Source of the DNA: Candidatus Omnitrophota bacterium
GTDB lineage: Bacteria > Omnitrophota > Gorgyraeia > Zapsychrales > Zapsychraceae
Length of the DNA stretch: 64,000 bases
Direction of reading: 5' to 3'
Assembly (NCBI GenBank): GCA_029261055.1
Contig: JAJDCA010000044.1
Coordinates: 77,867-141,866, forward strand
The position numbers were made by a program, and so were the translations under genes. Every line of letters begins with the position of its first letter. Position 1 is the stretch's first letter. The notes beneath the pieces are model-generated. The model saw only the letters and a list, made by a program, of their open reading frames with translations. It was not told the origin of the DNA and made no database searches. Of the stretch, positions 8,354-60,308 are shown piece by piece.

Positions 8354-8644
8354 ATGACAATAAATACTATACCGGCTTTAAAAGCACGTACACATTTTGG
8401 AGAAATTATGAAACGTTCATTTAAAAATGGAGAACACTTTGTTGTTGAAAAATCAGGTATTCCCATGATTGCTATCATTAATGCTAAAGAATATGAAGAA
8501 TATACGCGAATTATGGGGAGCCGAGAGGAACATTTTAAAATTATTGACACAATACGAAAGAAAGCTCCTAATATTCCTTCGCATGAAATAGAAAACGATA
8601 TCAACGAAGCTATTACGAATGTGCGAAAGTCAAAGCGTGCTTAA
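8354..8644 (+). CDS. type II antitoxin, Phd/YefM-like
   Basis: Small acidic protein MTINTIPALKARTHFGEIM... typical of Phd/YefM; overlaps the downstream PIN gene; track start TTG 8348, ATG at 8354 preferred. Confidence 0.7.
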   Translation: MTINTIPALKARTHFGEIMKRSFKNGEHFVVEKSGIPMIAIINAKEYEEYTRIMGSREEHFKIIDTIRKKAPNIPSHEIENDINEAITNVRKSKRA

Positions 8645-9068
8645 AGTTGTTATTGATACAAATAATTTTGTGAGTAGCCTTATTAACAAACGAGGGCTTT
8701 CCGCCCAATTGATTGATTTCTGGAGGCATGGGTATTACACACTTGTCATATCCGATGAAATTCTTGAAGAAATACAACGGGTTTTAACATATCCCAAAAT
8801 TTTCAAAAAGTATAATTTATGCAAAACAGATATTAAGCAGTTTATTTATACCTTAACTGAAGAAGCAACAATTTTACCTGTAGCATCTCAAGTAAACATT
8901 GTCAAAGAAGATCCCGATGATAATAAATTTCTAGCATGTGCCATAGATGCACAGGCAGACTATATTATATCTGGAGATCAACACCTGCTAAAACTTAAAA
9001 AATATCAAAGTATTCCAATTCTAACAGTAAGAGAATTTCTTGAGCTGTTAAAGAAAATGCCTAAATAA
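8619..9068 (+). CDS. vapC: PIN-domain ribonuclease toxin (VapC-like)
   Basis: N-terminal VVIDTNNFV acidic motif and a later ISGDQHLL motif characteristic of PIN; overlaps the antitoxin stop. Confidence 0.75.
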   Translation: MCESQSVLKVVIDTNNFVSSLINKRGLSAQLIDFWRHGYYTLVISDEILEEIQRVLTYPKIFKKYNLCKTDIKQFIYTLTEEATILPVASQVNIVKEDPDDNKFLACAIDAQADYIISGDQHLLKLKKYQSIPILTVREFLELLKKMPK

Positions 9069-9105
9069 AAGAAAATCTTGCCTTTGCAACGACTTATGGT
9101 AATAT

Positions 9106-10470
9106 TTGGACATGTTGATTTCGAGTTTTCAAGACCATCCTTACCTTACACTCTCACTTTTAGCTGTTTTAATTAACATTCCCCTCGGGTACATTCGTGA
9201 AAACTGTCCAAGATTTTCGTTCAAATGGTTTTTTTGGATTCATGCGTCTATCCCGTTTATTGTGTATTTACGTATTGCTTTGGGGACAAGTAAGTTGTTT
9301 ATTCCGATGAGTATTTTTTTGGCAATCATTGGGCAGATGATTGGAAGTCGTTGGCGGCATAAGACAATGACTACGCAGGAATGGGACAAACTCAATCAGA
9401 TAGATTTAACCGTAAACGAACCTCGTAGGTTCGGAAATCCGAACCTACGAGGTTCGTTTACGGTTGTGCTTTTGAACATGGGGGGGCCGCGGACTAATGA
9501 AGATGTTCGGGATTTTCAGATTCAGTTGTTTTCTGATGCGCGGCTTATTCGGTTTCCGCTTTCGAAATTATTGCAGCCTTTATTTGCTCGTTTGCTATCA
9601 ACCCTCCGCAATCACAATGCCAAAGCCCGTTATCAACTTATCGGAGGTGGCAGCCCTATATTTAAATCAACGAAACAGCAGGCCCAGGCTTTGGACAAAG
9701 AATTAAAACAGCGAGGCATCAAGAACACCAACGTAACTTTTTCATTTAATTACAGTGAACCCTTGCCTGAAACAACTATTGAAGAGGTCAAGAAATCCGG
9801 AAAAGAATACATCTTACCTTTAAGCCTTTATCCGCATTATTCCGAAGCAACCACTGGTTCTAATATTCATTATTTAAAAAAGGCCGCACAAAAAATTTAT
9901 CCAGAAGTTCAATTTTTGCCTACGCCATCTTATTATTTACATGACGGCTACATTCAGGCTTTTGTGGATCGGATTCATGAACAAATTACACCGGAAGCAG
10001 GGGAGAACTTGGATGATTATTATTTGCTGTTCTCTGCACATAGCTTGCCGCTGTATTTTCTAAAAGAAGGCGATAAATATCCGTTTCAAATCGCGCAAAC
10101 TGTGGGACAAGTCGTTACAAAGCTCGGACGCAAAGATAATTGGAGCATTTCTTACCAGAGCGCTGTCGGGCCTTTGCAATGGGTTAAACCGTACACAGAA
10201 AATATGATCGCGGCCTTAGCAAAAAGAGGGGTCAAAAAACTTTTGATTGTGCCTATTTCATTTGTTACCGACCATATTGAAACATCCTGTGAAATTGACA
10301 TTGAATATCGCCATATGGCGGAAAATTTGGGAATACATGATTTTCGTATGTCCAAAGCCATTGAATGTCATGCCGGATTCATTAAGGCCCTAGCTGATTG
10401 TGTAGAAGACGTTGTCGCGCATGAAAAATCTTCCCAAAGAAAAGTTGAAAAAGAAAAGGTGATTTGCTAA
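9106..10470 (+). CDS. hemH: ferrochelatase with an N-terminal membrane extension of about 110 aa (454 aa total)
   Basis: C-terminal 330 aa carry ferrochelatase signatures (VVLLNMGGP, LSLYPHYSEATTGS, SAHSLP); the N-terminus has 2-3 predicted TM helices; a 27-bp perfect palindrome sits at the domain junction. Confidence 0.8.
   Translation: MDMLISSFQDHPYLTLSLLAVLINIPLGYIRENCPRFSFKWFFWIHASIPFIVYLRIALGTSKLFIPMSIFLAIIGQMIGSRWRHKTMTTQEWDKLNQIDLTVNEPRRFGNPNLRGSFTVVLLNMGGPRTNEDVRDFQIQLFSDARLIRFPLSKLLQPLFARLLSTLRNHNAKARYQLIGGGSPIFKSTKQQAQALDKELKQRGIKNTNVTFSFNYSEPLPETTIEEVKKSGKEYILPLSLYPHYSEATTGSNIHYLKKAAQKIYPEVQFLPTPSYYLHDGYIQAFVDRIHEQITPEAGENLDDYYLLFSAHSLPLYFLKEGDKYPFQIAQTVGQVVTKLGRKDNWSISYQSAVGPLQWVKPYTENMIAALAKRGVKKLLIVPISFVTDHIETSCEIDIEYRHMAENLGIHDFRMSKAIECHAGFIKALADCVEDVVAHEKSSQRKVEKEKVIC
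9408..9465. repeat. perfect 25-27 bp inverted repeat (ccgtaaacgaacctcgtaggttcgg / aaat / ccgaacctacgaggttcgtttacgg) lying in-frame inside hemH
   Basis: Arms 9410-9434 and 9439-9463 verified as exact reverse complements; GC-rich relative to surroundings; encodes ...TVNEPRRFGNPNLRGSFTV... linking the membrane domain to the ferrochelatase domain. Confidence 0.85.
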
Positions 10471-10479: not shown

Positions 10480-12174
10480 ATGCCAACACTATCCGAACAT
10501 GATGTTTTTATCTTTGTAGCGCAACTGGGCGTTATTCTTATTTCCGCAAAAATTTTCGGTGAAATTGCCCGAAAATTAGAACAACCCATTATTGTCGGCG
10601 AAGTGATTGCAGGAATCCTGCTTGGGCCGATGTTATTCGGAAAATTTCTTCCAACCTATTACAATTTCTTATTTCCAAATACCGGGGCGCATCAATATCT
10701 TTTACAAGGCATCTCCTGGTTATGTGTTTTATTTTTACTCATGATTACCGGTTTGGAGATTGACTTCAGAGCCTCGATTAAAGAAGGGAAGCAGTGCTTT
10801 TTGATTTCAATCTTTGGACTTGTAATATCCTTAGGTGGCGTATTTCTTGTCACGCCGCTTTTGCCGGATTATTTCTATCCTGATGGGGTCAATCGATTCC
10901 ATGTCAATATGCTCATCAGCATTGCTTTGTCTGTGGTGGCTATCCCAGTCATTGCTAAAATTCTTTTTGATCTCAAAATTTTACGTTCTGAAGTTGGTGT
11001 CAAAATTTTGACGTCAGGAGTTTTAAGTGATATATGGGGATGGACCATCCTTGCGATTGCTATTTCTCTCATAGCCAGCGGCACCATTACAGCCGCCGTC
11101 ATTTTAAAACCGCTGATTACCATGATTCTTTATTTAACGGTTACGTTGACGATTGGCCGTGTCATTATTGATAAAATGCTAGATCTTTTTGGGTACAAAG
11201 AATTAGACACCACGCTGGCCATATCCTTGTTATTTTCACTTATGTTATTAAACGGCGCCGTGGCACATCTTTTAGGAATACATGTTATTTTTGGCGCTTT
11301 TATTGCCGGGGTCATGGCCGGTGAATCCACTAAAATTTCAGAATACATTCGACAATGGACGCAGGAATTTATTTTTGCCGTGTTTGCGCCCATATTTTTT
11401 GTGCTTATCGGTATGCAACTTCAATTTACAAAAGGGGAGATCTGGCTGCCGATCCTTATTTTATTTATTGCATCTTCAATCTGTAAAATTGCCGGCATGT
11501 TTTTCGGAGGTGTCTTGGGAAAAATGGGCCGAAAAAATGCCTTTGCGGTTGCCTGTGGGTTAAATACCCAGGGGACAATGGGTATTATCGTTGCGCTTAT
11601 TGCCTATGACATGGGAATATTTAATGATCATTTATTTTCGACTATTGTTGTTATTTGTATTTTAACCTCCCTTTTTGTCGGTCCCCTTTTGAAATGGGCC
11701 ATCGCAAGAGTGAAAAGGCCTTTGGCTAAATTTTTTGATCAAGAGCATGTTTTCTTAAATGTAGAAGGCGATTCAAAAAAGAAAGTTATCGAAAATATCG
11801 CAAAATTAATGGCTGAACGAAAAATTATTGATAATGAAGAATACATCCAGAAAATGATTTGGGAACGGGAACGTGTCATGAGTACGGCGATTGGGGATGG
11901 CATTGCCGTTCCACATGCCCGTATTAAAAATTTAAAAGAACCTATTCTATGTTTTTTTCGGCTCAAAGATCCCGTAGACTTTGCCAGCCCGGATAATCTT
12001 CCGGTGCAGTTATTGTTTTTAGAATTAACCGATCGCAATGATGATGGTATGCAATTAAATCTTATTGCTCAAATTGCCCGATTTATTTCAGCGGCAGACA
12101 ATCGTCAGCGCCTGCTCGATTGTGAAAAAGAAGAAGACATCCATCACATCCTAAGTTTTGATGAAAAAGTCTGA
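10480..12174 (+). CDS. monovalent cation:proton antiporter (CPA-type, about 12 TM) fused to a C-terminal PTS EIIA(Ntr/fructose)-type regulatory domain
   Basis: N-terminal 400 aa polytopic Na+/H+ exchanger-like; C-terminal 150 aa has the EIIA-2 signature DGIAVPHARI with a conserved His. Confidence 0.8.
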   Translation: MPTLSEHDVFIFVAQLGVILISAKIFGEIARKLEQPIIVGEVIAGILLGPMLFGKFLPTYYNFLFPNTGAHQYLLQGISWLCVLFLLMITGLEIDFRASIKEGKQCFLISIFGLVISLGGVFLVTPLLPDYFYPDGVNRFHVNMLISIALSVVAIPVIAKILFDLKILRSEVGVKILTSGVLSDIWGWTILAIAISLIASGTITAAVILKPLITMILYLTVTLTIGRVIIDKMLDLFGYKELDTTLAISLLFSLMLLNGAVAHLLGIHVIFGAFIAGVMAGESTKISEYIRQWTQEFIFAVFAPIFFVLIGMQLQFTKGEIWLPILILFIASSICKIAGMFFGGVLGKMGRKNAFAVACGLNTQGTMGIIVALIAYDMGIFNDHLFSTIVVICILTSLFVGPLLKWAIARVKRPLAKFFDQEHVFLNVEGDSKKKVIENIAKLMAERKIIDNEEYIQKMIWERERVMSTAIGDGIAVPHARIKNLKEPILCFFRLKDPVDFASPDNLPVQLLFLELTDRNDDGMQLNLIAQIARFISAADNRQRLLDCEKEEDIHHILSFDEKV

Positions 12175-16144: not shown

Positions 16145-17014
16145 ATGCCCTCGATTAAAGAGCACGACACAAAAATTAAAAGTCTTAAAAATACGCAAAA
16201 AATTACAAAGACTATGAAGATGGTAGCTGCGAGTAAACTACGCAGAGCGCATGAAGCCCAGACCAATGCCAAATTGTATGCGAACAATCTTACCGCACTG
16301 ATTTCCCGCATATCGGCTTCCGTCCAGGCGGATATGCATCCTTTATTGGTCGCCAGGGAGCAGGTGAAGCGTGTTTTAGTTCTCGTGGTTACCTCAGACA
16401 AAGGCCTGTGTGGGGCGTTTAATCACAATGCTAACAAACATGTCGAGGCCTGGGTCGAAAAGCAAGGTCACCGTTTTGAACAAATTGATTTGAGTTTTTG
16501 TGGTAAAAAAGGATGGACCTATTTTAAAAATCGACATAATGTGAATAAATATTATGAAGGGGTGACTGAGAATCCAAAATTTCTGGATGCCAAAACAATA
16601 GGAACTGATTTAACTCAGGCTTTTCTTAACGGGGAATATGATGAGGTGTACATTGACTACAATCAATTCTTTAGCCCGCTTTCTCAAGAAACAATTTTTG
16701 AAAAAATTTTACCGCTCGATCCTCAAAGATTGATCAAAGAAAAAGTAGAAAAACCAACCGAATACATTTTTGAACCGGAAGCTGCGAAACTTTTGGAATT
16801 CCTTATTCCACATTTTCTCTATTTTAAAATTTATTTTGCACTATTAGAAAATGCCGCTGGAGAACATGGGGCACGCATGACGGCCATGGATAATGCCACC
16901 CGTAATGCTTCAGATCTTATCAACCGAACCACATTATTACGTAACCGCGCCCGACAGGCCTCTATTACAACTGAACTGACGGAAATTGTGGCAGGAGCAG
17001 AGGCCTTAACATGA
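16145..17014 (+). CDS. atpG: F1 ATP synthase subunit gamma
   Basis: 289 aa, conserved C-terminal helix ...ITTELTEIVAGAEAL. Confidence 0.9.
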   Translation: MPSIKEHDTKIKSLKNTQKITKTMKMVAASKLRRAHEAQTNAKLYANNLTALISRISASVQADMHPLLVAREQVKRVLVLVVTSDKGLCGAFNHNANKHVEAWVEKQGHRFEQIDLSFCGKKGWTYFKNRHNVNKYYEGVTENPKFLDAKTIGTDLTQAFLNGEYDEVYIDYNQFFSPLSQETIFEKILPLDPQRLIKEKVEKPTEYIFEPEAAKLLEFLIPHFLYFKIYFALLENAAGEHGARMTAMDNATRNASDLINRTTLLRNRARQASITTELTEIVAGAEALT

Positions 17015-17324
17015 GCGAACAAGATCGCCTAATTGCCCAAGAGTTAAAAATAAAAATATCACAATTTGTAAAATTTGTAGATTTTAGAGTTTTTGGTTCC
17101 CGTGCAAAGGGAAACAATGTCCCGGAATCCGATATGGATGTATTTATGGAAGTGGAATCTCTAAACAAAGAAATAAAAAATAAAATTTATGATGCCTCTT
17201 GGGAAGTAGGTTTTGAAAACTTTATGGTTATTTCACCTCTAATTTTTACTTTCGACGAAGTGACAAATTCTCCTTTGCGAGCGTCCCCGATCTTAAAAAA
17301 TATTCTTTCAGAGGGAATTCAAAT

Positions 17325-17328
<4 letters not shown>
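17011..17328 (+). CDS. nucleotidyltransferase (MNT-type antitoxin)
   Basis: FGSRAKGN...ESDMDVF = GS-x(n)-DxD minimal nucleotidyltransferase motif; ATGA overlap with the atpG stop. Confidence 0.75.
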
Positions 17329-19130
<1,802 letters not shown>

Positions 19131-19131: not shown

Positions 19132-19391
19132 TGGGTACGTACACACTGACCATCATAACGCCCAACGGCAAAATATTTGAGGACCCTATTGAATCGCTCA
19201 TGGCACCGGGCACGGAAGGTTCTTTTGGCATTTTCGCTAATCATGCACCGCTGATAGCCTCTGTTAAAGATGGCCTGTTAACCGTCAAACACGAAGGCTC
19301 CCGTGAACAATTCACCATTGGCCCCGGCACATTGGAAGTTGATGATCAACACAATGTCCTTCTCCTATGTGATAGAGCTACACCATCATGA
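19131..19391 (+). CDS. atpC: F1 ATP synthase subunit epsilon
   Basis: 86 aa beta-sandwich-sized protein, operon position; overlaps the atpD stop. Confidence 0.85.
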
Positions 19392-30559: not shown

Positions 30560-30617
30560 TTCAAATATCTGACGATTGAATTATTGTAACCTACTGAAAA
30601 TAAACAATAAAATACGA

Positions 30618-30651: not shown

Positions 30652-30654
30652 TCA

Positions 30655-40461: not shown

Positions 40462-40513
40462 TATGTGGTATACTTAGAATGTACATAATTCAGTACATAT
40501 GAAAGGAGGACAC

Positions 40514-44403: not shown

Positions 44404-44698
44404 TTTTATCTCCTTACATCACAAGAATAACATATTATTATAAAAAATCAATCATTGTTCATAATCTTTCCTTCATATTTTGTGATAATAATACCAATTC
44501 CATTAAATAATGGCCATAATCCATTTGGCTTTTCTCGAACGCTTCTACGAGAATAGCCACTACCAAAAGAGGAATTATTTAATGGATTTGGTATAATCAC
44601 ATAATACGTCCGAATAATGTGATATTATTCACGTTTTTGCATAAATAATTTTCTCAAATTTTTTACAAAAACTTTCCCAGAAATTGGCATTTCGCTAA

Positions 44699-44713
44699 AA
44701 AATATGGCATACT
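44699..44713 (+). promoter_or_regulatory. 15-nt motif AAATATGGCATACTT (extended -10-like TGGCATACT) upstream of P3; identical copy upstream of P4
   Basis: Exact 15/15 identity at 44699-44713 and 55593-55607. Confidence 0.4.
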
Positions 44714-44836
44714 TGCAGTATCTATGAACAATTTACGTAAAAACTGTATCAAAATGGAATAGAAGAAATGCATCGATAAATCCGTCTACCCGTCGAGGAA
44801 CGAATAATAAATTACAATAAATAGGAGCCACGGACT

Positions 44837-50800: not shown

Positions 50801-53800
50801 GGCAGCCTCACCGATGTCGACAGGTTTTCAAATATTAAAGATCATAAACCCGAAGGAGTAGGTGGTACGATCGAAGATATTGTCAAAGCTATCGCAACCG
50901 CCAGCATTGAGTCAGGATTAACCAACGATGAAAAAGAAGCGGCCCAAGATCTAAAAACAGCGGCCCAGGAGGCATTAGTTAAGCTTCAATCATCTACTCA
51001 AAGCGCGAAACCGACAATAACACCGGGGCCGACAGAAACAGCATCGCCTACACCAACACCAGGACCATCCCCAACTCCAAACGCGACTCCAGATCCGACA
51101 TCAACTGATGATACGGCTAATTTAGAAAACTTTAATACTAAAATTTCAAAAATTAATGATGAGATGAAAATTTTTAAACATAAATATGCTAACAAGGATA
51201 TACCTGAAGCTGAAGCACAACAAATACAAATACTTTTAAAAGAAATGAAAAATCTTGTCAAAAATACAATAGAAAAAGGCAACGTAACTCCAGAAATGGT
51301 AGATCAAATAAATACTACTAGTAGTACATTTAATATTCACGGTGTTTTGAAAGTCGATTCGCATGAAGACTATACAGGAACACACGGGGAAAAATTAAAT
51401 ACAAATTTAGTTATATATCTAGATAATGACGGATATATTACTGCAGACAAAATTGAAATACCTGATCCTTCACCTACTCCGAGCGCAACACCGACATCAA
51501 CACCAATAGTGACACCAACACCAACTCCGGAAGGTAACATGCAGCTATTGGCGAACATATATGCAAACATGAAACCCAAGGATGCGGCAAACCTTATGTC
51601 TAACATGGATACTGAAACAGCAAAAAAAATGATCCCTTTAATGCCTCAAGAAAAAGTAACAAAAATTCTTGAATTGATGGATCCCCTACAAGCAGAAAAT
51701 ATCAATCCTCAAACAACACCAACCACGGAAGCAGAAATCGGCTCTAAAATTGACGATTTACTTGAGTCTCTTAGCAAGCCGATTGATGGTAAAAAAGATC
51801 CAAAAAATTATGGTACAGACAAAAAGCCCATGTTTGCCCTTTCTATCGTGGGAATTTCTCCTGACACGCAATCGCGAGAAAGCGTTATCGATGAACTTGT
51901 TGTATTGGCTAAGAATAACCCAGAGGCTACGAATCAAATATTAACGAAGCTTTTTGATCACAAGTATATCCAAAGTCATCTCGACAAAAACAATCAATCC
52001 TTAGCCCCCTTGATCAGTATACTTGAAAGAATTGATCCAGGATTAAAGCTGGTGGAGGATAAAATTCAAACGTTAATCAATTCACCAAACCTGGATGTTT
52101 CCACCGCTGGAAATATTTTTCTTCTCTCGCAAACCCTTGAGGTTAAAGGGATTTATGAAGAGTTTAAAAATGTATTGAGTGCAATAGACCGTTCAGACAC
52201 AAACAGTTTAAAAAACGATATAGAAGCACTATTGCGTGAAGTATTTCAATTTTTCTATGATGACAATCAAGACAAAAAGGATCTCCGCATTGAAAAAAAT
52301 GTACAAGATAATATTGTAAAAATTGGCAACCTACTCAAAGATATGGCAAAGCAGAATCCTGAGCAACTGACAAGCGCTAAGGCGTATGACATCATCGATA
52401 ACGCGGATTATTTAACCCTGGACGATAAAAATAGAATCAAAGCTCAAATTTCAACTGGGCAGGGTTATTATGCTATTGTATATTTACTTCTAGTCGGCGT
52501 CGTCGGCAGTATAAGCGGAGCTATTTTAATACAAAGAAAGAAATCTTTTAACAAAAAGCTAGCCGCTATCCATGACGCTATTGTAAAGGACAAACATTAT
52601 TTAACAGCCATAACTCTTTTTAATGATGAAAAATTTAAGGGCCGAAAACGCCGCCAAGTCATACAACATATTCAAACTATTGCTGATAATCAAAACAATC
52701 AGTTTGAACGTACTGTACAGTCACTCGCTCAAAGCATTTTGCAAGAAATTCAATCTGGCGGTGATGATAACGACCTTAAAAAAATTGTTGTTAAGACGCC
52801 TTCCAATACCTCAACTGATGGCGGAGAATCAGAGGAGAAAACTGCTGTAGACTTGATCTCTCGGGGAGAAACTCAAATTACTGAGGTACTGAACCTTGTT
52901 AGTACTTCAAAATGGACAAACGAGAAAGCGACTTGGATAAGAAGCAGTGCGGCACTTTTGCGTAAATTAAGAAATAATTTTGAAAAACAATTAACCTTAC
53001 TTAATCCCACAGATGCAAAAAAAGCAAAAATTATGTTAATGTCTCAACTTAAAACTCTTTCTAAATATTCAAACCTACAATGGACGAAAGAAAATTTTAA
53101 AAATGAAAAAAAATTCTTAGAATCAGTCGTTAACACTTATCAATCTTCGATTGAATCGAGCACACAATTTTCCATACATCAACAACAGCTCCAAACTATT
53201 AGTATGCTTAACACCTTATTCCTCTTTATGGGACGAACACATGAGTTGCCTCATTCTGAAATAACCTTAGAGCCAAAAGAGAAAATTGTGGATGGATTTA
53301 CAGGCTTACCACCAGAGGAAGTGACAGAAGTACATAAAGATATTTTCTCTATCCTCAATGATTGGGCGGTTGACACTGTTGTTGGTAAAGCAGCTTTAAA
53401 AGTACCGGGTTTTGCTACGAAAGACTCTGTTATTGGAATTGAATATAATGGAGAGGCCTTTGCTATTCGTATGAAAGAAAATAACAAGCATGAAGGTATA
53501 AATGTTGTTGTGGGTGGTAAAAAATTTATTGTCCCAGTATGTCCTCTTTGTCAATATGTCGCCTTTGACGCAGATGATCTTGCCAAAAACATGGGGTTTG
53601 AAGGAGAAGATGTGGTTGGCTTTGTTTCCGGACTTTTACGGCAAACTGGCCTTAATCATCCAAATGGTTTCGGTGTAATGCTTTTAGGTGAACGTAGTTC
53701 ACAAAATTTGATTTCCTTACACAAAAGAATGTTTCTCACCGGCCCTAACAAAGGAGAACCACTTAAGGTCCATCCAATTACACTCACAACATTAAATGAA

Positions 53801-54517
53801 TGGATTCAATCATATCCAGAAACAAAAGTATTAACTGATACCGGCTATTTAGACAAAGATTATAGTGCAGAAAATCCTTATAAATTAAAACATCAAAAAG
53901 ACTATGTAGTTGAGATAGGGACAAAAACAGTTGCTTTTTCTCAGGATTATCTTCAAAAATTACATAAAAAAATCGGAAAAAATATTGAAAAAATACAAAC
54001 AAAAAATTCCGGTTTTTTATATATCAAATTCAAAAATAATAAAAATATCCCCGTTTTTACTAGCGATAAAGAAGGTCAAATAACACTTCCTAATTTTATT
54101 GCTCTTCGGGAACCTTGGAGAACTAATCTTCATCCTGAAACCGAACTTTTCGATTCTGCCATGATCAATATCAAAAACGCCCCCCAAGAAGGTGGTATCA
54201 ACCTTAACATGGCGGCGGCGCAGTTTAAGAGGGTAAAGGATCAAAACGGTGGGGTGGCGCCTTTGTTGAGCAATCAGGAATTGCTCAATCTAAATATTCC
54301 TGGACTGATTCCGAAGCTGCGTAGCCTGACACCATTTATCATTCCACCCGGACTCCCAGCCCTCATCGGCCCAACCGGTTGGTTAAATACTGTACCGGGA
54401 GACAGCACAGATACAACCATCCCCGACCAATTCTCCGCCCTGGGGCCTATGGAGAAAAGACAGCGGTTAATCCTGGTTTCACCCAAGCAATCTTTTGTAA
54501 CGCATGTTATAGGTTAA
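44837..54517 (+). CDS. giant secreted paralog P3 (3226 aa): conserved N-terminal family domain, coiled coils, HEAT-like repeats, MgtE-N-like segment, Pro/Thr linkers, one TM helix near aa 2540, conserved C-terminal motif
   Basis: Single intact ORF in the track; AGGAG SD at 44822-44826; signal peptide ...SSIIPPQRAQAQV; the N-terminal 340 aa align with P1/P2/P4. Confidence 0.85.
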   Translation: MNIYLEKRKTCLLYRILAAFICFTFIFSSIIPPQRAQAQVMPTSGTILNLPVPGTMVPATDAYQPPIIRGVALNPEDPLNLNFIIDRGDNRLEGKDLENESQKLIKYFLAALTVPEEEMWVNLSPYESDRIIPNTFGDTEMGRDLLAQDYMLKQLTASLMYPEEELGEDFWAKVYDRAYEEYGTTDIPMNTFNKVWIVPEEAEVYEYDANAVVTKSRLKVMLEEDYVALQNNLGVDEFGLNSLSAEDAGITSGISSEVVREIILPEIEWEVNHGKTFANLRQIYNSMILATWYKEALTESFLGQVYIDQNKTEGVDTQDKQINQKIYKQYVEAFNKGVYDYIREDYDPTTELIVPRRYFSGGAAMRTSKKLNVIDIAMLPTSFINRAAAGVSELQLPILEDTETVPDDLTEMDKIDPLASESVPDYLSETDIPVQPLTLSEKFSEFTKSLEGGDIVSASKELGELKGHIDNLQNVERKKVAKSLNKKLNNFKKQLDKLEKINRTIIKKRVRDIKDLNAMPMGIENSEEINYLISKLENFLATGELNLKELEEFKTSYSTSGFKSIREFIANHPRLEKGSKLAVLTVIALSTAVSMGAAATQSESPQEFIKNLINVDTDLNNTAVANLLEIPEIKELGERYLAGELTEKEYESLAETLKNGNPEIQKLIVTIYQTALAQNIDLDEQGSEALQENQSNPLSLFARTENWVSNQLDSDLEAGALTEDSPANIHTLNPQEVRNVMDGLDDIDYEESPDAIKKAIKVVTNYLNLDSTDPTNDKVTQGNIKIAFKILDKIVDQNENNMTPDMKAATSADLISYIQDSQNSADNIISAIKLVSEIGGENNLEELKTFNKDLKNKYEKSVNEGKQLEQELKQLKRNLDNNPYPKGSFARDIDQNTYDNTLESLKVNQDNIKNLDKIIDTMGDVINDITEREGIVDHQKINELKSQETKLQKEIEQSVSEVKQLKEELKQLKQNLDNNPYPKGDFARDIDQNTYDNTKDALEDKEGDLKKQQDQLKVVEKSLKQIEKGNQGDGLLTRGVKAVTGAAKTVVNVISGDDTQESPTAETIEKIRADLQKKALSDLRSNESSVRRAAVNLLSDIGDEEAIKRLDKIANNDTNPVIKIEASTALDNIQERAGEPPSTIATDEVIKQLESKLQQLEEDAPLNPDGTTKTLSDFPHPGGTKANYGDFMEYGRQRAAIDELQSQIDDLKEILASFTTASAGGEAAGGGDGSGGPDDDDKKSKEALKTLPSVSQITSTHIANIENSSDESVKQESLKVLTRAALDGILSEKDIKNVIATIEELPTPDGIIEKEQAYTIKMQTKVLELMQDILNRMDSDNDRQKSLSTVTELSKSDLGIPANSSVNTLGTGQFAGNIENVKDLFVDSFKTAGDSLPELMKMSASPTNTLSNPRIGSSFFSESGVEKFADIPFDLNDSSDRWLLNKVVSFLETNVISSDVDDYFKTNIIKALTALGLPRSIDVISSIDTTDIDLKQDIEKTITTLQQRWGITPPSNIVPETEDQANTKLTERLHQFDNSKVRALTPDIVNDAIKGMDHPDNETKQTAIHIIGDVLGSKIPVPDEVIDKLIASTGTSTPELQVPSFKALFEGALNNKISQENIETVQSMPYDPTSDAQNRDREILIEIYQVKQNITDVQMNNDAPLVQKTAITDLEEKIKKTTGSNIPILRDRLIPEALETLVAQTYNPNVETSVREHAIISVGNLADSTPGITHENFKNYIPEGSNKSIGETLTYLATNDLDEGVQNAAKEALKKIDLVSTAPTVILSPKPVEIPTPTENAEIKAQINEISSIDPTNFTSDDITAVVAGIEHPTKEIQKAAVEKAGDIIENNKKPPQQLVDGFIKNLTDDTGKNNIPIYNELLNAIRQDKVLTDQGDTLRKIANDDNDPRSSVAKNFHDDYLLHQEIFKLSSDSLKDNSFGRTTIIYNLQEFIINSQTLEHLSGIDAIAKLAIDDSNFLVREVAVTVLGSLTDVDRFSNIKDHKPEGVGGTIEDIVKAIATASIESGLTNDEKEAAQDLKTAAQEALVKLQSSTQSAKPTITPGPTETASPTPTPGPSPTPNATPDPTSTDDTANLENFNTKISKINDEMKIFKHKYANKDIPEAEAQQIQILLKEMKNLVKNTIEKGNVTPEMVDQINTTSSTFNIHGVLKVDSHEDYTGTHGEKLNTNLVIYLDNDGYITADKIEIPDPSPTPSATPTSTPIVTPTPTPEGNMQLLANIYANMKPKDAANLMSNMDTETAKKMIPLMPQEKVTKILELMDPLQAENINPQTTPTTEAEIGSKIDDLLESLSKPIDGKKDPKNYGTDKKPMFALSIVGISPDTQSRESVIDELVVLAKNNPEATNQILTKLFDHKYIQSHLDKNNQSLAPLISILERIDPGLKLVEDKIQTLINSPNLDVSTAGNIFLLSQTLEVKGIYEEFKNVLSAIDRSDTNSLKNDIEALLREVFQFFYDDNQDKKDLRIEKNVQDNIVKIGNLLKDMAKQNPEQLTSAKAYDIIDNADYLTLDDKNRIKAQISTGQGYYAIVYLLLVGVVGSISGAILIQRKKSFNKKLAAIHDAIVKDKHYLTAITLFNDEKFKGRKRRQVIQHIQTIADNQNNQFERTVQSLAQSILQEIQSGGDDNDLKKIVVKTPSNTSTDGGESEEKTAVDLISRGETQITEVLNLVSTSKWTNEKATWIRSSAALLRKLRNNFEKQLTLLNPTDAKKAKIMLMSQLKTLSKYSNLQWTKENFKNEKKFLESVVNTYQSSIESSTQFSIHQQQLQTISMLNTLFLFMGRTHELPHSEITLEPKEKIVDGFTGLPPEEVTEVHKDIFSILNDWAVDTVVGKAALKVPGFATKDSVIGIEYNGEAFAIRMKENNKHEGINVVVGGKKFIVPVCPLCQYVAFDADDLAKNMGFEGEDVVGFVSGLLRQTGLNHPNGFGVMLLGERSSQNLISLHKRMFLTGPNKGEPLKVHPITLTTLNEWIQSYPETKVLTDTGYLDKDYSAENPYKLKHQKDYVVEIGTKTVAFSQDYLQKLHKKIGKNIEKIQTKNSGFLYIKFKNNKNIPVFTSDKEGQITLPNFIALREPWRTNLHPETELFDSAMINIKNAPQEGGINLNMAAAQFKRVKDQNGGVAPLLSNQELLNLNIPGLIPKLRSLTPFIIPPGLPALIGPTGWLNTVPGDSTDTTIPDQFSALGPMEKRQRLILVSPKQSFVTHVIG
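47437..47841 (+). repeat. internal tandem duplication in P3: two roughly 110-nt near-identical segments about 291 bp (97 codons) apart, encoding ...LKQLK(R/Q)NLDNNPYPKG(S/D)FARDIDQNTYDNT...
   Basis: Nucleotide and protein repeats seen directly; hand-derived coordinates are approximate (a few nt). Confidence 0.7.
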
Positions 54518-54572
54518 ATAGTTATCAAAATAAAAGAATGGAAGCTCATTAAAAATAGTGTATACTTTAAAT

Positions 54573-55046
54573 ATGAAAAAGTTACGAATATACATGGACA
54601 CATCAATTTACAACTTTGTGATTGCTGATGATGTTCCCCGCGAAAGGGAAGTCACATTAAAACTGATTGACGAAATTAAACATGGTAAATATGAAGTGTT
54701 TATCTCTGATGTTGTTGTACGTGAAATAAACGACGCCCCGGATAATATTGCGTTAAAATTACGAGATGTGATCAATGAGGTCAGCCCAACAGATATTCCT
54801 ATTGATGAAGAAGTGGAAACTTTGGCGGACAAATATGTGGCCGAAAAAATTATTCCTGAAAAATATCGCGACGATGCCCTTCATATAGCTGCAGCATCTA
54901 TTCATAATATGGATGTTATTGTTAGCTGGAATTTTAAGCATATTGTCAAATTAAAAACAAAAAAAGAAGTTGTCGGCATTAATTCATTAATGGGATATAA
55001 AGAAATTGAAATATATTCCCCTATGGAGGTTATTGAAAATGATTAA
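54573..55046 (+). CDS. PIN-domain protein (VapC-like toxin) cassette inserted after P3
   Basis: IYMDTSIY N-terminal Asp motif, DDALHIAAAS and VSWNFKHIV PIN signatures; the TATACT at 54561-54566 lies only 6 nt upstream of the ATG, too close to act as a -10 for this start. Confidence 0.65.
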   Translation: MKKLRIYMDTSIYNFVIADDVPREREVTLKLIDEIKHGKYEVFISDVVVREINDAPDNIALKLRDVINEVSPTDIPIDEEVETLADKYVAEKIIPEKYRDDALHIAAASIHNMDVIVSWNFKHIVKLKTKKEVVGINSLMGYKEIEIYSPMEVIEND

Positions 55047-55209
55047 AGAACCCAAACCTATGCAAGAAATTCATGCCATTCAAGAAAAAATTTATGAGGA
55101 AGAAAAAAATCTAACAGTCAAAGAAAAATTAAATCGTCTTCATGAAAAAGCAATGGCTGCAAAAAACCGATTGGGGTTAAAAATTAAAACTTTATCTCAA
55201 ACTGTATAA
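55006..55209 (+). CDS. small charged helical protein, possible cognate antitoxin (overlaps the PIN gene end)
   Basis: 67 aa, coiled-coil-like, 41-nt overlap. Confidence 0.3.
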   Translation: MKYIPLWRLLKMIKEPKPMQEIHAIQEKIYEEEKNLTVKEKLNRLHEKAMAAKNRLGLKIKTLSQTV

Positions 55210-55216: not shown

Positions 55217-55474
55217 CCGCCTTTGTTGAGTAATCAGGAATTGCTTAATTTGAATATTATCGGACTCGTGCCTGACCTCCGTAGTATCACACCATTTATC
55301 GTTCCCCCCGGACTCCCAGCCCTCATCGGCCCAACTGGTTGGCTGAACACTGTACCGGATGACACGCAAGACACAACCACCCACGACCAGTTCTCCGCCC
55401 TAGGGCCTATGAAGAAAAGACAGAGGTTAACTCTAGTTTCGCCAAAACGATTCTTTGTGGCGAATGTTGTATAA
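55217..55474 (+). pseudogene. orphan duplicate of the last 85 codons of P3 (about 85% nt identity to 54255..54517), no upstream gene body
   Basis: Direct nucleotide comparison: LSNQELLNLNI.GL.P.LRS.TPFI.PPGLPALIGPTGWLNTVP...FSALGPM.KRQRL.LVSPK... Confidence 0.65.
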
Positions 55475-55592
55475 AGTGCAATTATCCAGCCTTCATTGGC
55501 TAAACTGATTACCCATTTCCACAATTTCACCGACGAGATATATCCTAAATTCCAAAATTATCGACCAAGAAATAAATTGGCGCAGCGCCTTG

Positions 55593-55607
55593 AAATATGG
55601 CATACTT
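55593..55607 (+). promoter_or_regulatory. second copy of the AAATATGGCATACTT motif, 39 nt upstream of the P4 start
   Basis: Exact match to 44699-44713. Confidence 0.4.
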
Positions 55608-55645: not shown

Positions 55646-58600
55646 ATGAATAATTATTTACATTTCAGACAAAAAAATTTAGGTTATCGTATTTTAGCTG
55701 TTTTTGTGTGTTTTACATTTATAGCTGCTACGCTGACACCGCCGCAATACGCCCACGCGCAGGTTGCGCCTACCGCCGGGACTGTTCTTAATCTTCCTTT
55801 CCCCGGAAGCATGATTCAATCGACCGATGCGTTTACGCCTGTTTCTCTGTGGGGCATAACGCTTGATCCTCAGGATCCATTTAAATTTTATTTCACACTC
55901 GATAAAGGGCATACCGGTTTATCCGGTGAGGATTTGGAAGCGGAGGCGACACAATTGGCGAAATATTTTCTGGCGGCCTTAACCGTTCCGGAAGAAGAAA
56001 TGTGGGTAAATCTTTCGCCGTATGAAAAAAATCGTATCATTCCGCAAAGCTTCGGGGATACCGAAATGGGACGTGATCTATTGGCCCAGGATTATCTTTT
56101 AAAGCAACTCACCGCCTCGTTAATGTATCCAGAAGAGGATATTGGGGAAAATTTTTGGGAACGCATTTACGCCAAAGCCTATGAAAAGTATGGGACAACC
56201 GATATTCCGATGGATACGTTTCACAAGGTCTGGATCGTGCCGGAGCGTGCGCGTGTGGTGGAGGAAGGTAACAGTGCGTATATTGTGGATAGTTATTTGA
56301 AGGTGATGTTAGAGGATGATTATGTTGCTGCGCAACATAATCGTGGCGCGTCGCTCGTGACTCGTGACTCGGAAATAAAATCAAATTTGAAACGCGCCAC
56401 GCGTCACGAGCGACTAGCGACGAACCTTATCCGCGAAATAATCATTCCCGAAATCGAACGCGAGGTCAATGAAGGCGCAACATTCGCGAAGTTACGGCAG
56501 ATTTACCAATCCATGATTCTGGCCACATGGTACAAAATCCGCATGGAAGAAAGCCTGCTCGGTCAAATTTATGTCGATCAAAACAAAACCAAAGGTGTCG
56601 ATACGCATGATAAAAAAATAAATCAAAAAATCTACAATCAATATATCGCCGCCTTCCAGGAAGGCGTTTACGACTACATCAAAGAAGACTACGACCCAAT
56701 CACCCAAACCATTGTCCCGCGTAAATATTTTTCGGGGGGATTTTCTGGAAAACTAAGAAATTTCCTTATTATTATGAGCGCTACAGCAGCAATTAGTGCG
56801 GGCATCATATTCTCCAATTTAGGAATATCCAACGCAGGTACTTTTGATAGCCCAGGAAAAGAAACAGTTGCTGTAAGTCTGGTTAGTACTTCAAATAAAG
56901 GTCCTTCTACAATTAGAGATAGAAATAATGAAATACGTAAAAAACGCCATTCTAATAAAACCACTGTTGTTCAAAAAAAGGAAACCTTAAAAAAACCCCA
57001 AGAACAGAGTAATCCAATAAAAAACCTTACTTGGCAATTTAATGACAGTCTCAATGAAATAACAAAAAATAAGAAACAGGTCTCATCAACAACTGTAATT
57101 CAGCCCAATGATCCGTTGACTCCACTCGCAGATAATAAAATAACGCCTGAAACAAAAACAGACGACAATCAAGAAATTTCGAAACCGAAAGTGACAGTAG
57201 TTGATGAACCTCAGGATAATAACCTGAATGAATCAAATGAAATAAAAGTAACCGAAACATCGATAAAACAATCAAACGAAACCACTGAGCAGCCATCCAT
57301 ATCCGATGTCGACACTACTACTGAACAAAATGTCCAAACCACTCAAAATGATACTCTGGAAATCCAACCCCTGTCCATAGAAACTGACACTACGAAAGAG
57401 GAAAAATCCTCTTCAGGAAGTGACATACAAATTACAGAAACTATCAAAGAACCTACTACCAGCACCCAAGAACTAGTAAACCAATTTAAAAAAGATATTT
57501 CCGGAAACATTGATATTGAAGAAAATAAGCTTGCTGCAATACCTATTGCTCAACATTTAAAAGACAATCCTACTGATTGGGATGAATTTGCAAATATGGT
57601 TTTAACTGACCCAGATTATGATACGATCACCAAAATACTTCCCAATTTGTATTCGGTAGTTGATTTTGATAAATTGGAAATTTTACTTAAAAATCTTTCC
57701 GAAAGTCTATACGGCTATTGGAATTCCGTATTACAAAATAAGGCCACGAAAATACTCGAAGACCTCCAGCAGAAAGAATTCGACAGGATAATAAATAACT
57801 TCGTTAGTACCATTATTAATGGTGAATTAAATGATTATGACACTCACGAATACCCATTGATTGCCTTCGTAAAAAAACATCGCTTTCTATACCCAAAAAT
57901 GCAAGACACCTTATCTAATTATGACAATCAAGCAGTTAGAAAAATTTACCAACAGGATATTCTTCCGGAATTTGAAAATAGTGCAATCAAGACTATTAAA
58001 AATAAAGTACCGGAAAATGTCGACAATAAAGCCTCACAATTTATTAAAGAAAGACTTCCTGGTGATGAAGTTGAATCCATTAATATCGATATCAATAACC
58101 TTATGCCTTCCGGAGGTGTGGGGGAAACCTTATTAACAAATTATTTAAAAGAAAAAGGCATATACCTAATTTCTCTATTGTTAGGCGTAGGGAGCCTTGG
58201 CTTTTTTATATTGATTTGGGGGAAAAAATGGATATCAGAATTTTTTATGAAAAGAACATCTGTTAACTCTACTACATCAAGAAATATTAATAAAACATCA
58301 AACAAACAAATGCAAATTAATCCTATCAAAACCAATTTTCCACCGAATAACTCTCCAAAATCTATTGAAGATCCTAATAATGCACCTACTTTTCTAAATA
58401 CAATTCAACGTAAACCTTCTTGGATCATTGATGTACCGTCATCGATTTATGATGTACAAATGAAATTATCCCAAAAAAATATCAAACTAAAAAATGATTT
58501 ACTAAATATCATTGTAAATGTGGCAAAACCCACCAGATCTGATCTAAATACTGTCAAAGCTATCAAAATAGCACAAAAACTTGATTTTCACATTGCAAGC

Positions 58601-59590
58601 GATGTCTTGTATTATTTGATACTTAGAGAAGGGGACAGTGATGAAATTAAAAATGTATTTAAAGGCATTGCCAAAATAGCCAGGTTTATCCTTGAAGAAA
58701 GTAAAATTGAGAAGACATATTTTGACTCATTGTTGAAAGGTACTGTTAACGAATCTGCACGTGGAATAACTCCAGAAATGATTACTGTTTGGATAAACAA
58801 TTTAACGTCTTCTGATGTTAAAATAAATCATGAAGCAGCCGATCACCTTATTGAAGTTGTCGCAGGGATGACCACTGAAAGTAGTACAACGTTGCTGCCA
58901 CAGGAAAAAATTTCACAAATTATTGCAAATCTAAATACTCATTCTCCAGGGACTGTTTTTTATTCAAGCATGGTTCTGCGCGCATTGCTTTACAAGAGTA
59001 TTTATGTGATTAAACAATTGCAGAATAATAAAAATGAAAAAACCAATTTAGTTTTGAATGATGCTATCGACCAAATTGAAATTATCCAAACACGCGGACA
59101 TAATGCAATTGTTAATGATAAAAATACAATGCCTTTAAGGTTACCTTTCCTAAATGGTTACCCATCAGAATTAAAAAAGGTGATATCCATGGAAAAATTA
59201 AGGAAATCTAATATTAGAAATCGAGCAGTCACTAATCGATTAGATGAAGTAGTGAAGCATGCTGACGATCTGGCTGTTGATATTGCCATGCACGTAAACC
59301 AAGACGAAGAGTTAGGCTACGGTGGTATCAACCTGGACCGTGCAATGATGGATTTTGTGATTGAGCGGGATGCGGAAGGGATGCCATTGCCGGTCAGCCA
59401 ACAGCCAGTGGAGCATATCCGTATGAATCTGGAAGGTTTCCGACCGATCGTGGAAATCGCTCCGTTGATCTTGCCGGCGTTCTTAAGTTTACTTGATCAA
59501 AACGCCCCCAACACACATCCCAACCAGGATGAACTTTCCGCCCTAAGCCCCGTAGATAAAAAAAATCTAATAAACTCCGCAGCATTTTAA
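55646..59590 (+). CDS. giant secreted paralog P4 (1314 aa): conserved N-terminal family domain, Ser/Thr/Glu-rich low-complexity region, two hydrophobic segments, conserved C-terminal motif
   Basis: Signal peptide ...TLTPPQYAHAQV; N-terminal alignment with P1-P3; C-terminal GGINLD...LPVSQQPVEHIRMNLEGFRPIVEIAPLILP motif. Confidence 0.85.
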   Translation: MNNYLHFRQKNLGYRILAVFVCFTFIAATLTPPQYAHAQVAPTAGTVLNLPFPGSMIQSTDAFTPVSLWGITLDPQDPFKFYFTLDKGHTGLSGEDLEAEATQLAKYFLAALTVPEEEMWVNLSPYEKNRIIPQSFGDTEMGRDLLAQDYLLKQLTASLMYPEEDIGENFWERIYAKAYEKYGTTDIPMDTFHKVWIVPERARVVEEGNSAYIVDSYLKVMLEDDYVAAQHNRGASLVTRDSEIKSNLKRATRHERLATNLIREIIIPEIEREVNEGATFAKLRQIYQSMILATWYKIRMEESLLGQIYVDQNKTKGVDTHDKKINQKIYNQYIAAFQEGVYDYIKEDYDPITQTIVPRKYFSGGFSGKLRNFLIIMSATAAISAGIIFSNLGISNAGTFDSPGKETVAVSLVSTSNKGPSTIRDRNNEIRKKRHSNKTTVVQKKETLKKPQEQSNPIKNLTWQFNDSLNEITKNKKQVSSTTVIQPNDPLTPLADNKITPETKTDDNQEISKPKVTVVDEPQDNNLNESNEIKVTETSIKQSNETTEQPSISDVDTTTEQNVQTTQNDTLEIQPLSIETDTTKEEKSSSGSDIQITETIKEPTTSTQELVNQFKKDISGNIDIEENKLAAIPIAQHLKDNPTDWDEFANMVLTDPDYDTITKILPNLYSVVDFDKLEILLKNLSESLYGYWNSVLQNKATKILEDLQQKEFDRIINNFVSTIINGELNDYDTHEYPLIAFVKKHRFLYPKMQDTLSNYDNQAVRKIYQQDILPEFENSAIKTIKNKVPENVDNKASQFIKERLPGDEVESINIDINNLMPSGGVGETLLTNYLKEKGIYLISLLLGVGSLGFFILIWGKKWISEFFMKRTSVNSTTSRNINKTSNKQMQINPIKTNFPPNNSPKSIEDPNNAPTFLNTIQRKPSWIIDVPSSIYDVQMKLSQKNIKLKNDLLNIIVNVAKPTRSDLNTVKAIKIAQKLDFHIASDVLYYLILREGDSDEIKNVFKGIAKIARFILEESKIEKTYFDSLLKGTVNESARGITPEMITVWINNLTSSDVKINHEAADHLIEVVAGMTTESSTTLLPQEKISQIIANLNTHSPGTVFYSSMVLRALLYKSIYVIKQLQNNKNEKTNLVLNDAIDQIEIIQTRGHNAIVNDKNTMPLRLPFLNGYPSELKKVISMEKLRKSNIRNRAVTNRLDEVVKHADDLAVDIAMHVNQDEELGYGGINLDRAMMDFVIERDAEGMPLPVSQQPVEHIRMNLEGFRPIVEIAPLILPAFLSLLDQNAPNTHPNQDELSALSPVDKKNLINSAAF
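56344..56420. repeat. GC-rich palindromic element in-frame inside the P4 N-terminal domain: 12-bp inverted repeat gtcgctcgtgac(56350-56361)/gtcacgagcgac(56403-56414), outer tggcgcg/cgcgcca, tandem tcgtgac x2
   Basis: Seen in sequence; coincides exactly with the only segment of the family domain where P4 diverges from its paralogs (RGASLVTRDSEIKSNLKRATRHERLATN). Confidence 0.7.
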
Positions 59591-59643
59591 AACTTGACAT
59601 TTCCCTCTAATATGTCATACTTTGTATGACGGAGGTGATAAAA

Positions 59644-59898
59644 ATGAGAATAAATGCACGATTAGACTCAATTTATGAAGATAAAATCAAGCGCCTTGCC
59701 CATGAAACAAAAGAAAATGTCACAAATGTTTTAAAAAAGGCGATTGACTTGTATTATCAACATATCCAAAATACAACAAAACAACATACAGATATTATTC
59801 TTAAATCTACCTTTATCGGCTGCGCCGATGGTGACAAAAATCTTTCTAGCAATTACAAAAAACTCTTAAAAACATCATTAAAGAAAAAATGGTCATAG
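59644..59898 (+). CDS. ribbon-helix-helix (CopG-like) antitoxin
   Basis: MRINARLDSIYEDKIKRLAHETKENVTNVLKKAIDLYY; GGAGGTG SD; overlaps the PIN gene start. Confidence 0.6.
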   Translation: MRINARLDSIYEDKIKRLAHETKENVTNVLKKAIDLYYQHIQNTTKQHTDIILKSTFIGCADGDKNLSSNYKKLLKTSLKKKWS

Positions 59899-60308
59899 TC
59901 GATACTGGATTTTGGTTGGCTTTAGCGAACAATCGTGATCGATTTCATGATAAAGCGATTAACGTTTTAGAAAATTTATCCGAATCACTCATCACTACAT
60001 GGCCTGTTTTAACAGAAACATGCCATCTTTTGCTTAATCAACTAGGTCATCCCGCCTTGGAGAATTTTCTTCACATGTTTAGTCAAGGAGCTTTTTCTAC
60101 ATTTCCTTTAACGGATGAACATGCTTCACGGATAGAAAAACTTATTAAGAAATACAAAGATCTTCCTATGGACTTGGCTGATGCCTCCTTAGTGATCCTT
60201 GCTGAAGAACTGGGCCAAGGAAGAATTCTTTCAACGGATTTAAGAGATTTCCACACATATCGATGGAAACAGCATAAACCTTTTAAAAATCTTCTGATTG
60301 AAAATTAA
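59889..60308 (+). CDS. vapC: PIN-domain toxin (VapC-like)
   Basis: MVIVDTGFWLAL N-terminal motif, ...ILSTDLRDFHTY C-terminal motif. Confidence 0.75.
   Translation: MVIVDTGFWLALANNRDRFHDKAINVLENLSESLITTWPVLTETCHLLLNQLGHPALENFLHMFSQGAFSTFPLTDEHASRIEKLIKKYKDLPMDLADASLVILAEELGQGRILSTDLRDFHTYRWKQHKPFKNLLIEN

Follow-up and report, generated by a model that had tools for sequence, protein, structure and literature searches.

Giant genes and toxin-antitoxin modules at the locus

We analysed a 64,000-nucleotide (nt) stretch of the genome of a Candidatus Omnitrophota bacterium (GCA_029261055.1, contig JAJDCA010000044.1, positions 77,867 to 141,866 of the forward strand; the window hereafter), which carries four giant paralogous genes, P1 to P4, and seven small gene pairs read as toxin-antitoxin (TA) modules, four of which adjoin the paralogs. 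The best relatives of the window proteins are all Candidatus Omnitrophica or Omnitrophota. The paralogs, with lengths in amino acids (aa), are the following.

1846-5049, plus strand: P1, 1067 aa, N-domain and GGINFN tail
5096-8242, plus strand: P2, 1048 aa, variable middle with a NUDIX domain and a weak MazG-like region
44837-54517, plus strand: P3, 3226 aa, HEAT_2 and DUF3179, divergent from a radical-SAM gene
55646-59590, plus strand: P4, 1314 aa

The N-terminal ~330-390 residues of P1 to P4 show 52-64% mutual identity and the C-terminal ~100 residues are weakly similar, while the middles are unrelated. Each protein matches both the N-domain and the tail of a larger family, which is described in the last section. 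Judged by these shared ends, P1 to P4 are true paralogs, as a preliminary description of the window had held, and they belong to an Omnitrophota-wide family.

TA modules beside the paralogs

Four modules, TA1 to TA4, lie next to the giant genes.

8348-8644, plus strand: TA1 antitoxin candidate, Phd/YefM-like, 29.4 bits against a cut-off of 29.8 (borderline)
8619-9068, plus strand: TA1 toxin-family protein, PIN_3 (81.6 bits) and TIGR00305 (E 4e-26)
43940-44212, minus strand: TA2 toxin-family protein, ParE/RelE, 29.5 bits against a cut-off of 23
44200-44403, minus strand: TA2 presumed antitoxin, 67 aa, no family match
54558-55046, plus strand: TA3 PIN_3-like protein, 162 aa, PIN 18.1 bits (E 0.004), below the cut-off of 23.6
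55006-55209, plus strand: TA3 small open reading frame (ORF), 67 aa, downstream of the PIN-like gene, no match
59626-59898, plus strand: TA4 presumed antitoxin, ribbon-helix-helix (RHH)-like by eye from Met-7 (59644), no hidden Markov model (HMM) or PDB match
59889-60308, plus strand: TA4 toxin-family protein, PIN (VapC-like), 43.1 bits

TA1, TA3 and TA4 are on the same strand as the adjoining paralog and start 106 nt after P2, 40 nt after P3 and 35 nt after P4, respectively. TA2 is divergent from P3 across a 434-nt spacer, and it ends 10 nt before the start of the radical-SAM gene. The four modules differ in family and in gene order (Phd with PIN_3; an unassigned protein with RelE; a PIN-like gene followed by a small ORF; an RHH-like protein with PIN). 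The sole cross-similarity among them is that of the TA3 PIN-like protein to the TA1 PIN_3 protein, to which it is homologous (BLASTP 1e-6; 27% identity). In the alignment, the four acidic residues of the PIN active site are all present in 8619-9068, 59889-60308 and a third PIN protein of the window (30959-31360), whereas 54558-55046 has Asn at the fourth position. In TA3 the PIN-like gene comes first and has no upstream partner; PDB sequence searches with this gene and with the two unassigned antitoxin candidates returned nothing. Promoter-like hexamers are present in the gaps before TA1 (8270-8298) and TA4 (59594-59621) as consensus matches only, and the promoter and terminator scans, whose counts equalled those in shuffled sequence, serve as pointers only.

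TA modules at other sites

Three further modules lie away from the paralogs.

30723-30962, plus strand: TA5 antitoxin-family protein, Phd/YefM, PhdYeFM above the Pfam cut-off
30959-31360, plus strand: TA5 toxin-family protein, PIN (VapC-like), in a block (27789-32680) missing from relatives
40499-40768, plus strand: TA6 antitoxin-family protein, Phd/YefM, PhdYeFM above the Pfam cut-off
40722-41027, plus strand: TA6 toxin-family protein, ParE/YoeB-like; relatives have a DUF6787 gene at the same site
17011-17328, plus strand: MNT nucleotidyltransferase, GSx10DxD motif; start codon overlapping the stop of atpG (ATGA)
17325-17723, plus strand: HEPN-domain protein (PF05168), 58.6 bits; overlaps the atpD start by 8 nt

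In all seven pairs the genes are adjacent, co-directional and overlapping, by 4 to 47 nt. The Pfam scores of the toxins include 38.2 and 43.1 bits for the PIN proteins of TA5 and TA4, and 32.4 and 29.5 bits for the ParE proteins. The antitoxin partner exceeds its cut-off in three pairs (30723-30962, 40499-40768 and the MNT protein 17011-17328), and is without a family match in three others (44200-44403, 55006-55209 and 59626-59898). The MNT/HEPN pair sits inside the F-type ATP synthase operon, between atpG and atpD, overlaps its neighbour on both sides, and is predicted to be translationally coupled to both. The MNT protein has its motif, GSRAKGNNVPESDMD, at residue 29, and its gene overlaps the HEPN gene by 4 nt. 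The Rx4-6H motif was not found in the HEPN protein (17325-17723), and we therefore did not file the pair as HepT/MntA.

The preliminary description had counted seven TA modules in the 64 kb and placed TA modules at every giant-gene locus. Six of the seven are sound, in that the toxin or the antitoxin domain exceeds the Pfam cut-offs, while the seventh (54558-55209) combines a sub-threshold PIN-like protein with an unmatched small ORF. Four modules do flank paralogs, but the 5' side of P1-P2 carries no TA module, and to say that the modules bracket each locus was an overstatement. For the YefM-like/VapC pair after P1-P2, the RelE-like pair before P3 and the RHH/VapC pair after P4, the toxin assignments stand, whereas the antitoxins are just below the cut-off, without a family match and recognisable as RHH by eye only, respectively. 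The Phd/VapC, YefM/YoeB and MNT/HEPN pairs elsewhere in the window are confirmed, all above the cut-offs.

The comparison of composition that had been proposed at the same time sets all TA genes apart from the core genes. The 14 TA genes have GC contents of 0.29-0.37; pooled, their GC content is 0.327 and their GC content at third codon positions (GC3) is 0.269, against 0.408 and 0.374 for the core (Mann-Whitney P=1e-7, or P=2e-5 when the comparison is with small core genes of matched size). The cassettes at non-paralog sites share the low-GC signature of the flanking ones. The TA proteins are singletons at 90% clustering, with no near-identical copies elsewhere.

Presence and absence in relatives

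The backbone of the window consists of housekeeping genes (hemA, hemH, a complete F-type ATP synthase operon, a Rieske/cytochrome b cluster and a cytochrome oxidase cluster, together with ferredoxin, a radical-SAM enzyme, an aminotransferase and PtsP) and is syntenic in the relatives that we compared, which have ~60-80% protein identity. A Logan contig (L084; 17 kb, run SRR15505515) that is identical to the window at ~27.5-44.5 kb was given independent gene calls and Pfam annotation, which support the identity of the cassettes. Three backbone genes anchor the comparison.

483-1550, plus strand: hemA (glutamyl-tRNA reductase), left anchor of the P1-P2-TA1 insertion
9106-10470, plus strand: hemH (ferrochelatase), right anchor of the P1-P2-TA1 insertion
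42404-43930, minus strand: radical-SAM gene, conserved neighbour of the P3 position

Flanking and other cassettes alike are absent at the matching sites wherever the relatives are comparable, and the Pfam-annotated syntenic DNA of the relatives (~60 kb) contains no TA genes. In L080, L082 and L083 hemA directly adjoins hemH, indicating that P1-P2-TA1 (1846-9068) is one 7.2-kb insertion; the GC3 of this block is 0.23-0.28, against 0.37 in the core. The block is thus like a classical genomic island in its presence and absence and in its deviant composition. Unlike such an island, it lies in a window with no integrase or transposase among the annotated genes and with no tRNA target (a tRNA scan and an Rfam scan of the window gave no match), and a repeat search found no direct repeats flanking it. 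The MNT/HEPN pair is also an insertion, since in L082 atpD directly follows atpG.

At the TA6 site, the gene after DUF420 in L085, L086 and L087 is a DUF6787 gene and there is no Phd/ParE pair; no remnant of the DUF6787 gene was found in the window. The block that holds TA5 (27789-32680) is replaced in relatives by two unrelated genes. This lineage-specific block comprises ECF sigma, anti-sigma-VWA, Phd-PIN and Nuo51-like genes. At the P3 position, L087 also has a family member (2337 aa) facing its radical-SAM gene (79% identity), and the 230-nt spacer between the two holds no TA module, which indicates that a paralog at this position is ancestral and that TA2 arrived later. On the P4 side, the relatives found through the aminotransferase (L088, L089) show no synteny with the window that would polarise P4, TA3 and TA4.

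A repeat of the P3 3' end around TA3

TA3 lies exactly between two copies of the 3' end of P3, termed D3.

54258-54511, plus strand: D3 copy 1, the last 254 nt of P3
55218-55474, plus strand: D3 copy 2, an orphan ORF of 83 codons that follows the TA3 genes immediately and copies the C-terminal 84 residues of P3; the repeat itself covers 55218-55471

The copies are 81% identical according to the repeat finder, and 80% (nucleotide) and 79% (amino acid) identical over 255 codon-aligned nt. Their differences are mostly synonymous, with a synonymous divergence (dS) of 0.63 and a ratio of nonsynonymous to synonymous divergence (dN/dS) of ~0.2, implying that the orphan comes from an allele or tandem paralog that had diverged and was once functional. 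Its origin can be read in two ways. In one, recombination brought in a segment made of a P3-type 3' end and TA3, which pushed the old end aside; in the other, a tandem paralog once stood downstream of TA3 and a deletion has left just its tail. The duplication around TA3 indicates that at least one rearrangement joined a cassette to a paralog end. Neither TA1, TA2 nor TA4 has flanking repeats, and no second orphan tail next to a TA module was found in 79 paralog loci from other Omnitrophota genomes, where three short tail-bearing ORFs look like split genes.

Association of TA modules with the paralogs

Most gene junctions in the window overlap or are tight operon joints, and we therefore used a boundary-aware null that counts a junction only if it has a real gap, switches strand or is occupied by a TA module. 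On this basis, four of the seven modules fall into the 6 of 17 boundaries that flank paralogs (P=0.14). The occupancy of the paralog boundaries (4/6) does not differ significantly from that of the other boundaries (3/11; P=0.14). In total, 7 of the 17 boundaries hold a TA module, which means that TA density is high throughout the window. It amounts to 159 modules per Mb of non-paralog DNA, compared with 10.7 per Mb in the 79 other Omnitrophota loci (Poisson P=7e-7).

These 79 loci, which span 1.3 Mb and hold 112 paralogs, were drawn from GTDB species representatives. We called ORFs, flagged paralogs with an HMM of the N-domain and tabulated all small co-directional gene pairs; the candidate pairs were then scanned against Pfam in small batches, so that every family was reported. 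The flanks of the 79 loci show no synteny with the window. Six TA pairs were verified by Pfam.

L003: AbrB and RelE-like, between two paralogs
L014: AbrB and a toxin, touching a paralog
L050: AbrB and PIN_3, touching a paralog
L071: HigB/HigA, touching a paralog
L064: AbrB and PIN, two genes from a paralog
L011: Phd and ParE, thirteen genes from a paralog

In other species about 5 of 139 paralog flanks (~4%) carry a TA module, indicating that the pairing of TA modules and paralogs is not a conserved partnership. A survey of 14 Omnitrophota giants lists one RHH antitoxin among 560 flanking genes, and no TA association was reported there (bioRxiv 10.64898/2026.06.07.730766).

Independent acquisition as the probable explanation

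We consider it probable, with moderate confidence, that the modules are selfish, independently acquired cassettes in an unusually TA-dense genome and that they lie near the paralogs mainly because the paralog flanks are open gaps. The cassettes (VapBC-like Phd/PIN and x/PIN, Phd/ParE, RelE/ParE and MNT/HEPN) would each have arrived by horizontal transfer and settled where insertion causes little harm, mostly at the ends of transcription units in the hem-atp-bc1-cox backbone, with no functional link to the giants. The giant genes are members of a phylum-wide, multi-copy, fast-turnover family of secreted or membrane proteins. Each forms a long monocistronic unit, so that the flanks of the giants supply 6 of the 17 boundaries of the window, which would be enough to place four of the seven cassettes beside them. 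Any stabilising effect of the cassettes on neighbouring giants would then be a by-product rather than the work of a dedicated system. If this is correct, the result is chiefly of descriptive value, as a case of extreme local TA load (~1 cassette per 6 kb of non-paralog DNA), and in such a TA-dense genome adjacency is weak evidence of a functional link.

Several observations weigh against this explanation. When all 43 junctions between non-TA genes are taken as the null, four of the seven modules fall into the six that flank paralogs, which is a nominally significant excess (hypergeometric P=0.004). In the 79 loci, 4 of the 6 TA pairs touch a paralog where 17-33% would be expected; this enrichment has P=0.009 against the 17% expectation and P=0.04-0.11 with the null limited to real intergenic gaps. 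Solitary RelE-like toxins are next to or near paralogs in L078 and L044. On a metagenome contig of the Joint Genome Institute (L089, 2177-8196), a Phd-like gene (72 aa) and an overlapping PIN gene (131 aa) lie between an aminotransferase gene, the closest relative of that in the window (66% identity), and a paralog of at least 1754 aa. A preference of TA cassettes for paralog flanks across Omnitrophota is thus possible, if faintly indicated. Furthermore, the position of TA3 exactly between two copies of the P3 3' end is not predicted by random insertion, the MNT/HEPN pair in its tight operon junction shows that cassettes are not confined to loose boundaries, and the census covers 64 kb of this genome. 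The L089 module has the same kind of neighbours as TA4, in the opposite order.

The preliminary description had gone further and proposed that the giant genes reside on TA-stabilised variable islets or were shuffled together with the cassettes. Variable presence holds for P1-P2-TA1, as the insertion between hemA and hemH, and fails for the P3 position, which is ancestral as judged from L087. Joint shuffling finds a counterpart in TA3 within the duplication of the P3 tail, but the flanking families differ and there is no sign of co-duplication. We rejected a co-duplication of units made of a paralog and a TA module because the flanking TA families are unrelated and their gene orders differ. An enrichment near the paralogs over a uniform density is hardly borne out within the window, where three modules occupy non-paralog sites and the occupancies are not significantly different. 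The supported part is that paralogs and TA cassettes alike form part of the flexible genome.

Alternative explanations

The stabilisation of islets would mean that the cassettes are retained because loss of a costly giant-gene segment is penalised by post-segregational killing or toxic imbalance. Such stabilisation of islands and superintegrons by TA modules is an established concept (reviews PMC12548467, PMC7167474), and it suits the single low-GC insertion of P1-P2-TA1, the nominal flank enrichment in the window and in other genomes, and the fragmented paralogs of L026, L052 and L076, which show that the family decays. However, the family persists everywhere although few paralog flanks in other species carry a TA module, L087 keeps a paralog at the P3 position with none, three of the seven cassettes adjoin essential core genes that need no stabilising, and the enrichment is lost under the boundary-aware null (P=0.14 here and 0.04-0.11 in the other loci). 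We regard this explanation as unlikely. A further reading, in which TA cassettes across Omnitrophota preferentially associate with the family that has the N-domain and the GGIDLN tail, whether through gene ends that act as recombination arms between loci and strains, with the orphan P3 tail as a footprint, or as anti-deletion anchors, seems to us doubtful and a little less likely again.

Co-mobilisation could also have brought the two together, with the conserved 5' N-domain and 3' tail acting as homology arms through which a paralog end and its TA module are exchanged between loci or strains, leaving orphan ends that would resemble the orphan modules of polymorphic-toxin loci. The setting of TA3 between two 254-nt tail-coding copies is what such an exchange would produce, the synonymous divergence of the D3 copies speaks for an orphan from a once-functional copy rather than for decay in place, and TA genes lie between tandem paralogs in L003 and beside paralogs in L014, L050, L071, L078 and L089. 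On the other hand, TA3 is the single case of this kind, with none other in the 79 loci, a deleted tandem paralog accounts for the orphan equally well, and the repeats that bound TA3 have no equivalent at TA1, TA2 or TA4; we hold this route to be improbable.

It is highly improbable that the small downstream genes are functional partners of the giants, as immunity or regulatory proteins or as PIN RNases acting on giant mRNAs: three of the four paralogs are indeed followed by a PIN-type module within 35-106 nt on the same strand with no terminator-like site in between (the scan being a pointer only), but most paralogs in other genomes have unrelated neighbours, the TA families, gene orders and orientations vary, the modules themselves form complete, canonical TA pairs that have promoter-like sites of their own, the variability of the paralogs is central and their C-terminal tail conserved, unlike polymorphic toxins, and PADLOC gave no defence-system match.

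Comparison with known systems

Mycobacterium tuberculosis and Microcystis are TA-rich through VapBC expansions, with many unrelated modules of the VapBC and RelE/ParE types scattered over the genome. The density in M. tuberculosis is ~1 TA module per 50 kb, compared with seven in 64 kb here, where it is a local density and 15 times that of the other Omnitrophota loci. Polymorphic toxin loci of the contact-dependent inhibition (CDI) and Rhs types encode a conserved N-terminal part and a variable C-terminal toxin domain, followed by the cognate immunity gene. P1 to P4 recall these loci as multi-copy, large secreted proteins with conserved ends, small downstream genes and one orphan 3' fragment, but they differ in that their middle is variable and their tail conserved, and that the genes downstream are TA pairs rather than immunity genes and are unrelated across loci. 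The MNT/HEPN pair resembles HepT/MntA (type VII) in its MNT protein with GSx10DxD and the overlapping HEPN gene that follows, and departs from it in the HEPN protein, which lacks Rx4-6H, and in being coupled, by prediction, inside the ATP synthase operon.

The chromosomal type II TA cassettes of genomic islands and of the Vibrio superintegron, as reviewed in the two papers cited above (PMC12548467, PMC7167474), are likewise small PIN/VapC, Phd/YefM and ParE/RelE pairs that are horizontally acquired, deviant in composition, variable, and located beside accessory genes that they possibly stabilise. In contrast to these regions, the window lacks an integrase, a transposase, a tRNA and attC-like repeats, and its cassettes are also wedged into core operons (atp and the ends of the cox cluster) and occupy 7 of its 17 unit boundaries. 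TA cassettes, including RelE/StbE, MntA and HigAB, have been described as cargo of lateral transfer in Omnitrophota. A coupling between cassettes and paralogs, if true, would link addiction modules to surface-protein turnover in a phylum of suspected predators or epibionts, and the many new complete Omnitrophota genomes are suited to testing it.

The giant paralog family

The family to which P1 to P4 belong numbers 1425 database proteins at E<=0.001, with more than 572 matches in GTDB species representatives. It is confined to Omnitrophota, where multi-copy genomes are common and 25 of 77 loci have at least two copies within 20 kb. The N-domain (~330 aa) contains the motifs WVNLSPYE, NTFNKVWIVP and RKYFSGG. 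It has no Pfam family, a PDB sequence search with it was empty, and a Foldseek search of PDB with its AlphaFold model (mean predicted local distance difference test score 78) gave no match at E<=0.001 (template modelling score <=0.14). The tail, GGI(D/N)L...PVIINITP...LLG, occurs in 74 of 81 complete members against 7 of 408 other proteins and may be a sorting or anchoring signal. P2 to P4 have a signal peptide before the N-domain; P3 and P4 begin with such a peptide or a hydrophobic segment, and inside P4 further hydrophobic stretches are visible by eye. With its novel N-domain and conserved GGIDLN tail, this uncharacterised, phylum-wide, secreted family merits a study of its own.

The domains listed for the 'Archaeovorins', giant proteins of Omnitrophota (bioRxiv 10.1101/2023.11.21.568195), include HEAT_2 and NUDIX. 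The paralogs are like these, compared by description only, in phylum, in the N-terminal signal or hydrophobic segment (P3, P4) and in having HEAT_2 or NUDIX in the variable region, but measure just 1.0-3.2 thousand residues. PADLOC found no defence-system match in the four giants and their neighbours, except for one weak radical-SAM match.

Composition differs between the paralogs. P1 and P2 have a low GC3 throughout (0.26-0.28), whereas the N-domain regions of P3 and P4 (44837-45886 and 55646-56695) have a GC3 of 0.47-0.49, against 0.37 in the core, and their remainders ~0.30. This contrast suggests different residence times or expression levels, and the pattern fits P1-P2-TA1 as a later arrival and P3 and P4 as long-resident genes.

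The reading frame of P1 continues upstream of the GTG at 1846 (window 1700-1846) with a signal-peptide-like sequence (...THLAYRLLSAFVALTFAFSLIIPPSSIYAQS); this stretch offers no ATG, GTG or TTG after the preceding stop, and the start codon of P1 is either lost or non-canonical. Short ORFs with the tail, in L026 (2804-3547), L052 (12861-13700) and L076 (10184-10960), each follow a truncated N-domain ORF immediately; frameshifts or stops have probably split a paralog in these cases, which represent pseudogenes or assembly errors. P3 and P4 have in common an upstream 34-nt motif (AAATTGGC...TATGGCATACTT) at 44681-44714 and 55574-55607. The motif overlaps promoter-like hexamers and could serve the paralogs as a shared promoter or regulatory site.

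Apart from the cassettes and paralogs, the window contains two further lineage-specific insertions, a fusion of a Na+/H+ exchanger with PTS EIIA (10480-12174) and an AsmA-family gene after atpC (19388-21097); the matching sites in L082 and L085 to L087 are without these two genes and without the TA5 block (27789-32680).

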